DNA of 26,807 nt from an uncultured Methylophilaceae bacterium (lineage in GTDB: Bacteria > Pseudomonadota > Gammaproteobacteria > Burkholderiales > Methylophilaceae), in the NCBI GenBank assembly GCA_964022105.1, contig CAXIBZ010000001.1, positions 1 to 26,807 on the forward strand. Reading direction: 5' to 3'. Position 1 is the stretch's first letter. Every line of letters begins with the position of its first letter. The notes under the pieces are model-generated. The model worked only from the letters and a program-made list of their open reading frames with translations, had not been told where the DNA came from and did not search any database. The position numbers and the translations under genes were made by a program. Of this stretch, positions 9,042 to 19,134 are shown piece by piece.

Positions 9042-10288
9042 GGTAAAACTCCTACAGCTTGGTTATATCTGGCAATATTCCATTGATGTTGTATTTGCAC
9101 TGCACGGTATTTGCGCTCTGCATCAAAGGTTTGGCTTTTAATTCTAATTAGCGTAGCAAGGTCATGTTCGCCGAGCGCATAGGCTTTTTCTGCAAGCCGC
9201 AAACTTTCACTGGCTATTTCCCAATGCTGTTTTGCCAGCGTAAGCTCAAGCTCATTCACCTCTAGGTTATGTTCAGCTTCATGAAGCGCTGCCTCTAATA
9301 CTCTTTTGAGCTCATCACGCTCTGTAAGCGCCTGTCCCAAATTCATTTCTGAAGCGGCAGCAATCGGTGTTGTTCTTGCTGGTGTGGCAAAAGGAATACG
9401 AATGCTGAGACCCATGCTTTGGTTATACTGCGTGTCAAATGCACCTTGAGAATTTCTAGCGTTGATTAAAACTTGAATATTTTCTTTTTTTTCAATATTG
9501 GCAAGATTGCGCTGCTCTTCTGCATAATTAACCTTAGTTAGGATGGCGAGCCAAACAGGTGATTGTTCATAGTTATCCAACGAAGACTTTTCTTCAGAAA
9601 AATACTCAGGAATCTGGTTTAATCCTGTCACTAATTTATATCGGAATCGAGCGTGCATCAGCTCGGCTTGCGCCAGTAGTTTATTTTTAGAAGCTTCCAG
9701 CGTATCTTGCTGAGCGAGTAACCAATCTGTTTTGGCTGCTTCACCTGCTTGATAACTTTTACTTACCTTCTCTTCTAACGCTAATGCACTTTGATATTTA
9801 GCCTCAGTCAAGGCAAGCTCATTTTCATTGAATGCAACATCCCAAATAGCTTCTCTTAATAGACCGGCTGTTTGTATCGCTAGCGCGGATTGGCTTGCAT
9901 CTAAATTCAAAGCACTCAATTCAGCAACTTTCGCTCTTGCCTCACGCTGATTTGGCAACCATAGCGGCAATTCTAATGTCGCTTGATAATCACGCTCATT
10001 TCGGCTACTGCCCAGACGATCATTTTGATGAAAAATTGTAATAGCGGGCGCATCTGGCAGAAAACTATCTGCCAGTGCCTGCTTTGCAGATACCCCATAT
10101 TGCTGCGAATTTAGATTCGCTTGTTGTGGCTGACGCTTAATCGTTTCATTTAATACATCTTTTAAACTCAATGATGGATTAATGTGCAACACATCTTTGT
10201 GCACATCATCTTCCGCAGCTATGCCAATGCTTGCACTAAAAATGAAAGGTAATATCCAAATGCTAAATAGCAAGGATGAAAGTTTCAT
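9038..10288 (-). CDS. TolC/CzcC family outer-membrane efflux protein
   Basis: Signal peptide, two helical OEP-type halves, C-terminal YNQAVGVLP; SD AGGAG; ATGA overlap with the adaptor gene. Confidence 0.85.
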   Translation of the reverse strand: MKLSSLLFSIWILPFIFSASIGIAAEDDVHKDVLHINPSLSLKDVLNETIKRQPQQANLNSQQYGVSAKQALADSFLPDAPAITIFHQNDRLGSSRNERDYQATLELPLWLPNQREARAKVAELSALNLDASQSALAIQTAGLLREAIWDVAFNENELALTEAKYQSALALEEKVSKSYQAGEAAKTDWLLAQQDTLEASKNKLLAQAELMHARFRYKLVTGLNQIPEYFSEEKSSLDNYEQSPVWLAILTKVNYAEEQRNLANIEKKENIQVLINARNSQGAFDTQYNQSMGLSIRIPFATPARTTPIAAASEMNLGQALTERDELKRVLEAALHEAEHNLEVNELELTLAKQHWEIASESLRLAEKAYALGEHDLATLIRIKSQTFDAERKYRAVQIQHQWNIARYNQAVGVLP

Positions 10289-10294
10289 TGAACA

Positions 10295-10350
10295 CTCCTA
10301 AAAACTACAAAACAGATGCCAACGGCATCAATGAATGACTAGTTTTTAAG
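10295..10350 (-). promoter_or_regulatory. Predicted SD-sequestering hairpin (translational attenuator) between the uORF stop and the tolC-family start
   Basis: mRNA 5' arm CUUAAAAACUA (10350-10340, includes the UAA stop) pairs with 3' arm UAGUUUUUAGG (10307-10297, overlaps SD AGGAG). Inner stem GAUGCC-GUU-GGCAUC (10329-10315). Confidence 0.65.
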
Positions 10351-10768
10351 CGTGTGGTGGGGCGTGAGACAGCGGTCGCTGATAAGAAAATGCTTGTTTG
10401 TAATGAAAAGTTATTGCTGGACGAACAAACCATGTCGCAAAAACAAATGCAATCAAGCCAAACAAAATCGCACTAAAGCTAATTACATCTATTGCTTCTT
10501 GATTCAGGATTGCCTGGTCAACATTCACCATGGTTGAATCCAGACTACGGTCTACAAGATGTGTATGTGTATCCGCTTCGACCGCTACAGGCAGATACCT
10601 TGAAAGCGGATCAACATCTAGACTGTGTAAATGTAACACCTGAGAGCCGACACTCTCATGTGCCTGATCACCGTTGTAATGAACGTGTAGAAATGGCAAT
10701 AGCAGTTGCATGATGCCCAAACAGAGAATCAGTGCGAAAGTAAAGCGTTTTGTCCTAACGGAAATCAT
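10346..10768 (-). CDS. His-rich two-TM leader protein ending in HAPP; putative DUF2946/CutF/CruR/CzcI-like regulatory uORF
   Basis: 140 aa: hydrophobic 9-27, HxH at 28-30, 46-48 and 68-70, hydrophobic about 95-115, C-terminus RPLSHAPPHA; co-oriented 57 nt upstream of the tolC-family gene. Confidence 0.75.
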   Translation of the reverse strand: MISVRTKRFTFALILCLGIMQLLLPFLHVHYNGDQAHESVGSQVLHLHSLDVDPLSRYLPVAVEADTHTHLVDRSLDSTMVNVDQAILNQEAIDVISFSAILFGLIAFVFATWFVRPAITFHYKQAFSYQRPLSHAPPHA

Positions 10769-10774
10769 GCAATC

Positions 10775-10803
10775 AATTTACCAAATAAGCTTGCTTGATA
10801 CAA
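10775..10803 (-). promoter_or_regulatory. Putative sigma70 promoter of the efflux operon (leaderless start at the uORF ATG)
   Basis: Minus strand: TTGTAT (10803-10798), 17-nt spacer ending in TGG, TAAATT (10780-10775), 6 nt, ATG (10768). This is an extended -10 (TGn) geometry. Confidence 0.55.
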
Positions 10804-10829: not shown

Positions 10830-10847
10830 TTACGTCAAATGACGTAA
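10830..10847. promoter_or_regulatory. Perfect palindrome, putative transcription-factor site between the divergent efflux operon and glyQ
   Basis: TTACGTCA-AA-TGACGTAA (8-2-8 inverted repeat). Confidence 0.5.
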
Positions 10848-10958
10848 AAGATTAACTGTTGCAATAAAGCATCTATCGTGTAAACAGTTGCTTAAGTTAG
10901 TCTTCACAATGGATTCTCATGTAAAATCTGTCTTTTTAGTTCATTTGCATTCACAACA

Positions 10959-14011: not shown

Positions 14012-14551
14012 ATGAAGCTGGTTATTCTTGATAGAGATGGTGTGATTAATAAAGAGAGCGATCTCTTTATTAAAACACCAGATGAGTGGATTCCAATTCC
14101 TGGTAGTTTAGAAGCCATTGCATTGTTAAACCAGCATGGTTTTCATGTTGTAGTGGCTACGAATCAATCTGGCATTGCGCGTGGTTTATTTGATATGGTC
14201 ACGCTAAATGCCATTCATGACAAAATGCAACATGCTGTGGCTCAGGTTGGCGGCCATATTGACGCTATTTTTTATTGCCCCCATGCCGCCAGTGACAATT
14301 GCGAATGCAGAAAACCCAAGAGCAATATGATTACTGATATTGGTCACCGCTTTGCAGTTGATTTAAAAAAAGTACCTGCCATAGGAGATGCAATGCGTGA
14401 CTTGCAGGCATTTGCAAAAGCAGGATGCCAACCCATGTTAGTTAAAACTGGAAAAGGGAAAGAAACCCTAGCGAAAGGTAACTTACCTGAGAACACACTC
14501 ATCTTTAACAATTTGGCTGATGCTGCTCATTATATTGTCAAAAAACATTAA
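14012..14551 (+). CDS. gmhB: D-glycero-beta-D-manno-heptose 1,7-bisphosphate 7-phosphatase (ATG at 14012 preferred over TTG at 14009)
   Basis: HAD motif LDRDGVIN, TNQSG, zinc site CPH...CECRKPK, IGD; glyS-gmhB-plsC synteny. Confidence 0.93.
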   Translation: MKLVILDRDGVINKESDLFIKTPDEWIPIPGSLEAIALLNQHGFHVVVATNQSGIARGLFDMVTLNAIHDKMQHAVAQVGGHIDAIFYCPHAASDNCECRKPKSNMITDIGHRFAVDLKKVPAIGDAMRDLQAFAKAGCQPMLVKTGKGKETLAKGNLPENTLIFNNLADAAHYIVKKH

Positions 14552-14563
14552 CCGCTGTTTGAT

Positions 14564-15271
14564 ATGATTTATTTACGCTCATTTATCTATAATCTTGGCA
14601 TGTGGATTTTTACCATCCCCTTCACCACTATCGGCTTACTGACTTTTCCGCTAGCGCCAATGCAACGCTACCGCTTTCTGAGTCAATGGGCGCGCTGCAT
14701 GCTATGGTGGTTGCGCATCAGCTGTGGTTTAAGCTTTACTGTTAAAGGTCGCGAAAATATTCCAGATAGTCCAAGCATTATTCTTTGTAAACATCAATCG
14801 GCTTGGGAAACGTTAGCGCTGCAACTCATTTTTCCCCCACAAGTATGGGTACTCAAACGCTCACTGTTATTGATTCCTTTCTTTGGTTGGGCACTGGCAC
14901 TCACATCACCCATTGCAATTAATCGATCTGCTGGACGTGAAGCGCTGAAACAACTGGTTCTTCTTGGCAAAGAACGCTTGGCCAAACAGTTTTGGGTCGT
15001 CATTTTTCCCGAAGGCACTCGCACTTCGCCAGGCGAACGTGGCAAATATCATATTGGCGGTGCCTGGCTGGCCACACATACAAAAACGCAAGTGGTGCCT
15101 GTCGCGCATAATGCTGGGGAGTTTTGGCGTAAAAATTCCTTTCTAAAATACCCGGGCGTCATTCAAGTTAGCATTGGTAAACCAATGCAAACTGATGGTG
15201 TAAAGGCTGATGTGCTAAACCAGCAAGTTGAGAACTGGATAGAAGCCGAAATGAACACTTTCACTCCATAA
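14564..15271 (+). CDS. plsC: 1-acyl-sn-glycerol-3-phosphate acyltransferase
   Basis: KHQSAWET (H-x4-acidic) and IFPEGTR acyltransferase motifs. Confidence 0.88.
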   Translation: MIYLRSFIYNLGMWIFTIPFTTIGLLTFPLAPMQRYRFLSQWARCMLWWLRISCGLSFTVKGRENIPDSPSIILCKHQSAWETLALQLIFPPQVWVLKRSLLLIPFFGWALALTSPIAINRSAGREALKQLVLLGKERLAKQFWVVIFPEGTRTSPGERGKYHIGGAWLATHTKTQVVPVAHNAGEFWRKNSFLKYPGVIQVSIGKPMQTDGVKADVLNQQVENWIEAEMNTFTP

Positions 15272-17931: not shown

Positions 17932-19134
17932 GTGGATTCAACACTCGCGCAATTACAAGCTGGTAAGCTACAAGGCAGCAAACAACTGAAACTGTCTTGT
18001 GGCCTCACCACCTTCCCTTCAGCTATTTACGGTTTAGTTGATACTTTAGAAATTCTCGATTTAACAGACAACGCCCTCTCCACTTTGCCTGATGATTTTG
18101 ACCGCTTTAAAAAACTACGTATTTTATTCTGCTCATCTAACCAATTTACCGAATTACCAGCAGTACTGGGTAAGTGTGAAAGTTTGCGCATGATTGGCTT
18201 TAAAGCTAATCAAATCGGCTATATTCCAGAGGAAGCGATTCCAACAAAGCACTTACGTTGGTTTATTGTGACTGATAACCGACTAAGAAATCTGCCAGAT
18301 GCATTGGGCGACTGTAAACACTTACAAAAACTGATGCTAGCAGGCAACCAATTGAGTGCATTACCTGGAACCATGGCAAACTGCCACGCATTAGAACTGC
18401 TGAGAATTCCGGCAAACCAGTTTAGCGAATTGCCAACGTGGCTATTTGATTTACCCAATCTCACCTGGCTTGCCTATGCTGGCAACCCTTTCTCAAATGC
18501 TATTGAGAAAATGCAAATGCAGCAACTGCATGCGCCTAAAATTGACTGGTCAACACTCGCAATTGGCAAAGTCTTAGGTCAAGGTGCATCTGGCATTACT
18601 TACCAAGCAAATCGGCAACAGAATGGCAGTAGTGAAACTGTTGCAGTTAAGCTCTTTAAAGCAGGACTCACCAGCGATGGGCTACCGAGTTGTGAAATGG
18701 ACGCCAATGTCATGGCTGGAGAGCATCCAAATTTAGTTGGTGTAAAAGGCATCATTAGCAATCACCCAGAAGGTATGCAAGGTTTAGTGATGCCATTGCT
18801 TCCTGCGGGCTTAACCATACTAGCTGAGCCACCCAGTTTTGAAACTTGCTCGCGTGACGTATACCCAGCAGAAACCAAACTAACCGCTTCGCAAGCAAAC
18901 CACATTGCGGAAGGTGTAGCCAAAGCCATGCAACATCTGCATCAACAAGGATTAATGCATGGTGACCTTTATGCGCATAATATTTTATGGGATGATACGC
19001 AAGTCGTATTGAGTGATTTAGGTGGTGCATCTTTTTTACCAGTACATGATAAAAAATTGGCACAAGCACTAATGCAACTCGATAAGCGCGCTTATCAGGT
19101 ACTGCTTGAGGAGTTAGCAAACATCACAGCATAA
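17932..19134 (+). CDS. Leucine-rich-repeat protein fused to a Ser/Thr/Tyr protein-kinase-like domain
   Basis: GTG start; 23-aa LRRs over aa 39-187; GQGASG loop, VAVK (K240), E255, HGDLYAHN (D345, N350), SDLG (D362). Confidence 0.88.
   Translation: MDSTLAQLQAGKLQGSKQLKLSCGLTTFPSAIYGLVDTLEILDLTDNALSTLPDDFDRFKKLRILFCSSNQFTELPAVLGKCESLRMIGFKANQIGYIPEEAIPTKHLRWFIVTDNRLRNLPDALGDCKHLQKLMLAGNQLSALPGTMANCHALELLRIPANQFSELPTWLFDLPNLTWLAYAGNPFSNAIEKMQMQQLHAPKIDWSTLAIGKVLGQGASGITYQANRQQNGSSETVAVKLFKAGLTSDGLPSCEMDANVMAGEHPNLVGVKGIISNHPEGMQGLVMPLLPAGLTILAEPPSFETCSRDVYPAETKLTASQANHIAEGVAKAMQHLHQQGLMHGDLYAHNILWDDTQVVLSDLGGASFLPVHDKKLAQALMQLDKRAYQVLLEELANITA
18046..18492 (+). repeat. Protein-level tandem LRR array: six full 23-aa units plus a partial seventh
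   Basis: Units begin LEILDLTDN, LRILFCSSN, LRMIGFKAN, LRWFIVTDN, LQKLMLAGN, LELLRIPAN, LTWLAYAGN at exact 23-aa spacing. Confidence 0.85.

Follow-up and report, generated by a model that had tools for sequence, protein, structure and literature searches.

A candidate histidine-motif arrest leader upstream of a heavy-metal RND efflux operon in a Methylophilaceae bacterium

Introduction

Small exported proteins with a RAPP C-terminus, such as ApdA and ApdP, carry an established arrest module that controls downstream genes. At a C-terminal RAPP, elongation arrests when the third codon of the motif occupies the P site and the fourth the A site (PMC12992588). That a nascent leader can combine a Pro-Pro arrest motif with metal sensing and control of a downstream gene is also known, from the DUF2946 (PF11162) copper leaders CruR of Bordetella pertussis (Bp2923) and CutF of Rhodobacter capsulatus: CruR needs its RAPP for downstream expression and gives toeprints at Pro-Pro, and stalling on CutF opens a stem-loop over the cutO RBS (PMC9426467; 10.1101/2025.02.05.636593). 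A third point of reference is CzcI of Cupriavidus metallidurans, a small protein reported to act in the periplasm by quenching the activity of its pump (PMC10127602).

Here we analysed a 26,807-nt stretch of DNA from an uncultured Methylophilaceae bacterium (assembly GCA_964022105.1, contig CAXIBZ010000001.1), referred to in its full length as the window. An original prediction, made from the letters of this stretch, proposed that one of its small ORFs encodes a histidine-based, metal-sensing ribosome arrest peptide that controls the RND efflux operon behind it. We compared this ORF, hereafter the leader, and the operon with the systems above by homology searches, alignment, phylogeny and RNA folding.

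Results

A two-TM leader precedes a heavy-metal RND operon

The leader lies 57 nt upstream of a gene for an outer-membrane efflux protein (OEP), on the same strand (Table 1). The ORF itself, its hydropathy and an AlphaFold2 model all agreed with the anatomy described for it in the original prediction, namely two TM segments, three HxH motifs (residues 28–30, 46–48 and 68–70) together with H37, an acidic loop and a HAPP tail. The loop (residues 31–94) holds 11 Asp/Glu against 2 Arg, and the tail reads S134-H135-A136-P137-P138-H139-A140-stop, with the His135 codon CAC at 10364–10366, Pro137 at 10358–10360, Pro138 at 10355–10357 and the stop codon TAA (UAA in the mRNA) at 10346–10348. R5, K7 and R8 precede TM1, which is predicted to insert N-in as a signal anchor, and TM2 ends 22 residues before Pro137. 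AlphaFold2, run on a 35-sequence alignment, returned two helices and a loop that was disordered or of low confidence (mean pLDDT 68); the model offered no fold to search with and no readable geometry for the His cluster.

Table 1 Positions of the leader, the helices predicted for the spacer and the downstream operon within the window
Feature	Position	Strand	Basis
Leader ORF, 140 aa, two-TM, with a His- and Asp/Glu-rich loop; ends HAPP-HA-stop	10346..10768	-	
TM1, residues ~9-27	10688..10744	-	Hydropathy; AlphaFold2 helix 4-31
TM2, residues 95-115	10424..10486	-	Hydropathy; AlphaFold2 helix 95-114
Signature Q21-x3-P25-x2-H28-x-H30, periplasmic end of TM1	10679..10708	-	35-sequence alignment A3
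Second HxH, H46-L-H48	10625..10633	-	Family alignments
H135-A136-P137-P138, RAPP-like candidate arrest motif	10355..10366	-	Conservation in family
P1 5' arm: last two codons, UAA stop and the A-rich bases after it	10340..10354	-	
P2 inner hairpin, 6-bp stem, 3-nt loop	10315..10329	-	
P1 3' arm: U-tract plus Shine-Dalgarno AGGAG of the OEP gene (10295-10299)	10293..10307	-	
Outer-membrane efflux protein, TolC/CzcC-like, 416 aa	9038..10288	-	Pfam OEP, E = 2e-21
CzcB/CusB-like periplasmic adaptor, 362 aa	7953..9041	-	TIGR00999, HlyD_D23
CusA/CzcA-family heavy-metal RND permease, 1021 aa	4888..7953	-	TIGR00914

Upstream of the leader, no Shine-Dalgarno sequence was recognisable in 10769–10803 (minus strand). 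A weak promoter-like pair, TTGTAT-17 nt-TAAATT, ends 6 nt before the leader ATG, with TACATT in relatives; it was found by pattern matching alone and falls under the threshold of the scan tool. The leader mRNA may be leaderless or nearly so.

All three downstream genes matched the components of an HME-RND set, a CusA/CzcA-family permease, a CzcB-type adaptor and an OEP, with the permease scoring 1086 bits against TIGR00914 (cut-off 701). The genes flanking this operon are housekeeping genes (glyQ/glyS, Lnt, MscL, CorC, YbeY and FBPase), and none of the neighbours in the window is a regulator gene, which bears out the earlier description of a tolC-MFP-RND operon directly downstream with no regulator gene. 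In bit score the permease is slightly closer to ZneA (662) than to CusA (609), and it has Gly and Gln at the positions corresponding to CusA M573 and M623. DFG in TM4 marks the divalent-metal HME groups; the TM4 motif of this permease is AIGMLVDSSVVVVEN, without DFG.

Two further observations concern the surroundings of the operon. A near-perfect palindrome, TTTACGTCATTTGACGTAA, lies at 10830–10848 (minus strand), ~65–80 nt upstream of the leader ATG. It is kept in seven loci with a divergent glyQ (the window, L015, L001, L004, L010, L012 and L013) and is missing where the flanks differ. It may serve, for the leader or for glyQ, as the operator of a regulator encoded elsewhere. At 17932–19134 (plus strand), a 400-aa ORF appears by eye to start with leucine-rich repeats and to have a C-terminal half resembling a protein kinase; such a protein would be unusual in a small methylotroph-type genome.

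A leader family with an invariant His motif and Pro-Pro end

Sequence and profile searches recovered ~25 clusters of homologues of 124–149 aa. When 401 genomes of the same order were searched in six frames with a profile, 29 of them, from 19 of 168 genera, proved to contain a homologue. The family falls outside the reference libraries. Pfam and NCBIfam scans of the leader protein returned no model and chance-level matches only, and none of 35 relatives matched a library family in the same scans. The PF11162 profile, which the original prediction had proposed as a check, did not match the window protein at E ≤ 1 and touched one of the 35 family members at E = 0.8. A profile search of PDB sequences yielded nothing meaningful, and tblastn against 72,556 plasmids gave no match. 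The ESM Atlas contained look-alike clusters of hypothetical proteins, one of them auto-named 'Cobalt transporter family protein', which we treat as a lead only.

Close homologues are conserved over the entire length of the protein. Seven positions, Q21, P25, H28, H30, H46, P137 and P138, are invariant in the 35-sequence alignment of the family (A3); A136 is retained in at least 90% of its members, and H48 in at least 90% of the closer homologue set. No column of A3 is a conserved Cys, and the sole cysteine of the leader protein, Cys16, sits inside TM1, as expected from the earlier claim that the protein lacks CxxC. Q21, P25, H28, H30 and H46, all invariant, stand at a long distance from the candidate arrest site and so suggest a sensing site of the kind that CXXC provides in CruR. 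A hydrophobic segment comparable to TM2 is found in 28 of the 35 members, at a median distance of 26 residues from the Pro-Pro motif (range 15–42).

At the other end of the protein, the motif and its position are retained in homologues down to ~20% identity, and in all 35 aligned members between one and six residues follow the four-residue motif. Loss of conservation at the APP end, named beforehand as an outcome that would speak against arrest, is not what the alignment contains, P137 and P138 being invariant throughout. The codons for this end differ synonymously between loci (GCC CCA CCA, GCG CCG CCU, GGC CCG CCA and others), and selection therefore acts on the peptide and not on the RNA.

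A survey of gene neighbourhoods, also suggested by the original prediction, tied the family closely to efflux operons. In 10 of 10 metagenomic loci, including loci with differing outer flanks, the leader stands 56–64 nt upstream of an OEP-adaptor-RND operon. Among 28 genome loci, an OEP gene follows directly in five and a CzcB-like adaptor gene in the rest; one locus (L033) runs off its contig, and the assignment was confirmed in 27 of 28.

This synteny bears on the idea that an arrest on the leader monitors membrane insertion or secretion capacity (Sec, YidC or PMF), as in MifM, SecM and ApdP, with the His motif unrelated to it. Such a monitor would make sense of the N-terminal anchor, the translocated acidic loop, a TM2 ~22–26 residues before the arrest point and the RAPP-like end. 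The downstream genes, however, are always HME-RND components and never sec or yidC, and the invariant His cluster would be left without a role; we give this idea very little credence.

Pro-Pro tails are rare in the genome and cluster in leader-like ORFs

We enumerated ORFs of at least 80 aa in the genome to which the window belongs (1.78 Mb, 81% complete; n = 2079). HAPP occurs once in this set, and x[AG]PP within the last nine residues is confined to six of the 2079 ORFs. Four of these six are proteins of 104–143 aa with an N-terminal TM segment: the window leader, two true DUF2946 genes (ends RGPP and QAPP) and an unannotated 104-aa RAPP ORF. The three leader-like ORFs other than that of the window all precede TonB-dependent receptor genes.

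Each of these three has features of its own. The unannotated ORF (contig C32:3157–3471; L075:2261–2572, minus strand) has an N-terminal TM segment, ends in ...ARAPPSTSRT, contains the sole RAPP in the ORF set and lies 67 nt upstream of its TonB-dependent receptor gene; it has the look of another arrest-type leader, again with no Pfam family. The other two (contig C6:11568–11999 and 14406–14837; L076) are canonical, CruR-like DUF2946 genes with the ends QAPP and RGPP, each followed after ~385–430 nt by a TonB-dependent receptor gene. Variation at the Arg position therefore extends to true DUF2946 proteins.

His replaces Arg in the RAPP-like motif

The window protein has His where the R-A/G-P-P core has Arg. 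Mutational work found the Arg of RAP to be irreplaceable in ApcA, ApdA, ApdP and SecM, every replacement, including His, having abolished arrest (PMC12992588); genetic selections have recovered R/HxPP and HGPP as stallers, in a context-dependent manner. The original prediction had pointed out that the His codon CAC is one base from CGC and had left it undecided whether HAPP was a natural variant or an error. The assemblies and phylogeny settle this point. Position 135 is His in many independently assembled relatives (P0002–P0007, P0010–P0012, L015 and L004), and maximum-likelihood phylogeny places both the window clade and a further H clade (HAPP/HGPP) inside a clade with 98/94 support whose other members carry RAPP. 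Judged on these grounds, HAPP is a natural, derived variant of RAPP and not a sequencing error.

The family samples this position widely. Among the 35 members the ends are RAPP in 13, LAPP in nine, QAPP in eight, HAPP in two, and HGPP, AAPP and APPP in one each; HGPP, a reported staller, is the exact end of two homologues. The nearest relative of the window protein, at 98% identity, ends in QAPP. With this and with LAPP, QAPP and AAPP in other clades, position 135 is evidently not tightly constrained, and any pause may therefore be weak or sensitive to EF-P. The H, Q and L variants may give a weaker, EF-P-sensitive pause, or none.

Predicted masking of the pump Shine-Dalgarno by the end of the leader

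The spacer between the leader and the OEP gene is predicted to fold into two nested helices, with P1 enclosing P2 and P1 pairing reaching the AGG of the AGGAG Shine-Dalgarno (SD) sequence (Table 1). For the window spacer the z-score is −4.56; 200 dinucleotide shuffles yielded no fold as good. The same nested fold was obtained in all 12 related loci tested, with z-scores from −2.1 to −5.1; in each of them the leader stop region is predicted to pair with the U-tract and the SD. The position of P2 is conserved, and its stem sequence changes with compensation in related loci. Run on a MAFFT alignment, RNAalifold returned P1; few double changes were present, as neither the stop codon nor the SD is free to vary. 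Misalignment of the hairpins hid P2 from this method, and the per-locus folds are therefore what supports P2. In more distant loci the SD pairs variously with the stop region, with the final sense codons or with the codons of APP, in every case at the 3' end of the leader.

As a measure of this masking we took the pairing probability between SD bases and the footprint of a ribosome arrested as on RAPP peptides, with the first Pro codon in its P site; this footprint covers 28 nt, −12 to +15 relative to that codon. Across 29 family loci, SD-footprint pairing averaged 0.56, compared with 0.05 for each equal-size flanking window, and exceeded 0.5 in 18 loci. For 54 gene pairs of this genome (same strand, 40–110-nt spacers, SD present) the mean was 0.065 and three pairs exceeded 0.5; the two highest values belonged to the RAPP-ended ORF on C32 (0.95) and the window locus (0.80). 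By the predicted folds and this pairing, the candidate arrest site is so placed that a stalled ribosome would remodel an mRNA structure that masks the RBS. Pairing is weak or negative in most QAPP loci (89–107-nt spacers). The QAPP/APPP members L027, L034, L035, L041, L042 and L043, with spacers of 68–107 nt, show little predicted SD-footprint pairing; here coupling may work by another mechanism or be absent.

The same spacer could instead be an attenuator of transcription, in which P2 and the U-run form an intrinsic terminator, or Rho acts as in CruR, and the position of the ribosome decides on read-through. A terminator scan does mark 10329–10315 plus UGUUUUG, and Rho-dependent termination is the route by which CruR acts. 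Against this, the P2 stem is just 6 bp, the U-run right after it is unconserved in other loci and is explained as the P1 3' arm, and a ribosome on Pro-Pro or on the stop codon falls short of P2 and so cannot modulate it; the spacer, 57 nt and AU-rich, would also be poor for Rho loading. Assembled contigs from public RNA runs include short ones, from relatives, over the leader and the 5' end of the OEP gene, and one contig from a run labelled RNA spans 10134–10362 and so crosses the spacer, which is weak evidence against attenuation, as the contig may derive from DNA. All told, we consider attenuation improbable.

Relation to DUF2946, CzcI and Apd-type proteins

CruR and CutF are the closest parallels in design. 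Like them, the window leader is small, exported or anchored and first in a metal-homeostasis operon, and all three carry a Pro-Pro motif 2–4 residues before the stop together with an upstream metal-ligand motif. The downstream RBS is predicted to lie in a stem-loop that ribosome stalling would open, a further similarity to CutF. Three traits of this type, a DUF2946-like C-terminal RAPP-like end, an N-terminal export signal and first place in a metal operon, are all present in the window leader.

The differences are equally clear. The window leader lacks both a PF11162 match and the CXXC/CXXXC of CruR and CutF, and has the His ligands Q-x3-P-x2-HxH ... HxH instead. Its second TM segment stands where DUF2946 proteins have the linker from CXXC to RAPP, and the spacing is fixed in DUF2946 (~45 residues from CXXC to RAPP), whereas the distance from TM2 to the Pro-Pro motif varies from 15 to 42 residues in the leader family. 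The spacer to the next gene is 57 nt in the window and 162 nt in cruR, and the presumed target is an HME-RND pump rather than a TonB receptor or a multicopper oxidase. An hhalign comparison of A3 with 27 DUF2946 proteins of the same order aligned the last 21 columns only, at a probability of 13%. Because hhalign showed no usable homology, we rejected placing the leader in DUF2946; by sequence comparison, the leader family shares the DUF2946 architecture and C-terminal module, lacks CXXC and is not demonstrably homologous.

CzcI resembles the leader in being a small His-containing protein encoded directly upstream of a czcC-type gene (on pMOL30, with a 75-nt spacer), but it has a cleavable signal peptide and a CxxC, and no APP end. 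The czcI gene (L077:5177–5524) encodes a His-rich stretch and, 11 residues before the C-terminus, the residues R-A-P-D. Assignment to CzcI, the second family that had been proposed for an HMM search, was rejected as well: hhalign of A3 against CzcI gave a probability of 0.4% over 3 columns, that is, no relationship.

ApdA, ApdP and ApcA resemble the leader as small proteins that carry a localisation signal and, close to the C-terminus, a RAPP-like motif, and that are encoded upstream of a presumed target. Their targets are Sec/YidC, as opposed to a metal efflux pump, and they have Arg where the window protein has His, although homologues in the leader family carry true RAPP or RGPP. A screen for RAPP/RGPP motifs would miss the window protein.

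A role like that of CzcI is nevertheless one way to understand the leader. The product could be a stable two-TM, periplasmic metal-binding accessory protein that assists or tunes the pump; P1 would then merely tie the pump to leader translation by plain translational coupling, and the APP tail would be a relic or cause a minor pause. Several observations lean in this direction. The His signature is invariant and close homologues are conserved over their full length, CzcI is reported to quench CzcCBA activity (PMC10127602), and Arg has given way to His, Gln or Leu in many members even though it is essential in the RAPP peptides studied. Any translating or terminating ribosome that gets to the stop would moreover open P1, so plain coupling explains the fold without a regulated arrest. 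What this account leaves unexplained is the fixation of A-P-P beside the stop across ~20% identity with synonymous codons, the rarity of x[AG]PP tails in the genome and their concentration, in four of six ORFs, in leader-like proteins before transport genes, and an SD masking that is specific to the footprint of a ribosome on Pro-Pro; nor is homology to CzcI detectable. We consider this account unlikely, but the most serious of the rivals.

Discussion

Heavy-metal RND pumps are usually under two-component systems or MerR/ArsR-type regulators. The operon described here lies amid housekeeping genes with no adjacent regulator, behind a conserved leader that has the anatomy of an arrest-peptide switch. 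Next to the observed anatomy, family, synteny, conserved motif and conserved, specific SD-masking fold stands the reading that we favour, with somewhat better than even confidence: the leader would be a cis-acting, arrest-type gene for the heavy-metal RND operon, on which a pause unmasks the SD and metal tunes the release. As far as sequence can support it, the combination of an arrest leader with SD unmasking is well supported. The RAPP-like motif, the HME-RND operon in every homologous locus and the helix from stop to SD all speak for the arrest leader originally predicted; the Arg core does not, position 135 being His.

In this arrest-leader model, P1 of the resting mRNA would pair the last codons, the stop and the A-run of the leader with the U-tract and AGGAG, P2 would close the loop, and the pump RBS would be masked. 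A ribosome translating the leader would pause or arrest once Pro137 occupies the P site and Pro138 the A site, an assignment made by analogy with the RAPP peptides (PMC12992588). Its mRNA channel would then hold the P1 5' arm, freeing the SD ~60 nt downstream so that translation of the pump could start, and P1 would re-form after the ribosome is released. N-in insertion would put the His cluster (H28, H30, H46 and usually H48) at the periplasmic face. With its end 22 residues before Pro137, TM2 would be in or just leaving the exit tunnel at the pause, an arrangement in keeping with a release driven by insertion force and modified by metal binding. Metal on the His cluster would change the speed of pause release and so make pump synthesis metal-responsive. 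The pause itself, its modulation, the involvement of metal and the direction of the response are what we infer from the arrangement of the locus.

A more specific version, in which the leader is a Cys-free, His-based, co-translational sensor of periplasmic metal and the dwell time at [R/H]APP sets pump translation with no protein regulator at all, is one that we put forward tentatively and hold to be possible but doubtful. In that version H28, H30, H46 and H48 of the nascent leader would take up a divalent metal during the time that [R/H]APP keeps the ribosome on the stop-codon arm of P1. As a counterpoint, the palindrome upstream of the leader could mean control of transcription by a regulator encoded elsewhere.

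Some of this ground has been touched before. In the supplementary tables of Fujiwara et al. 2025, small ORFs with RAPP/RGPP are enriched ahead of several groups of efflux genes: 'TolC family protein' has RAPP 530 versus AAPP 380 and RGPP 415 versus AGPP 79, and 'CusA/CzcA family' has RGPP 133 versus 4. That supplement also has RAPP/RGPP uORFs before RND adaptor genes, and its tables include two proteins with the signature of the leader family; the main text neither discusses nor tests these efflux groups. The original prediction had supposed that such control was not described for this type of pump. The upstream ORFs, members of the family among them, were thus already tabulated, whereas a text search of the literature found no paper describing arrest-peptide control of an RND pump. 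The new elements are a Cys-free His-motif family, defined here and linked to HME-RND operons, its specific SD-masking fold and a natural replacement of an 'irreplaceable' Arg.

The leader family is a protein family that currently has no Pfam or NCBIfam model, and its RAPP, HAPP, HGPP, QAPP and LAPP ends are a natural series with which to ask how far arrest depends on Arg. If the arrest-leader model is true, the principle of CruR and CutF would extend from copper and cysteine to a His-based family and to efflux pumps. If its His-based sensor version holds as well, the locus would be the first case in which an arrest peptide controls an RND efflux pump, and evolution would have set arrest strength through the choice of R, H, Q or L at the Arg position.
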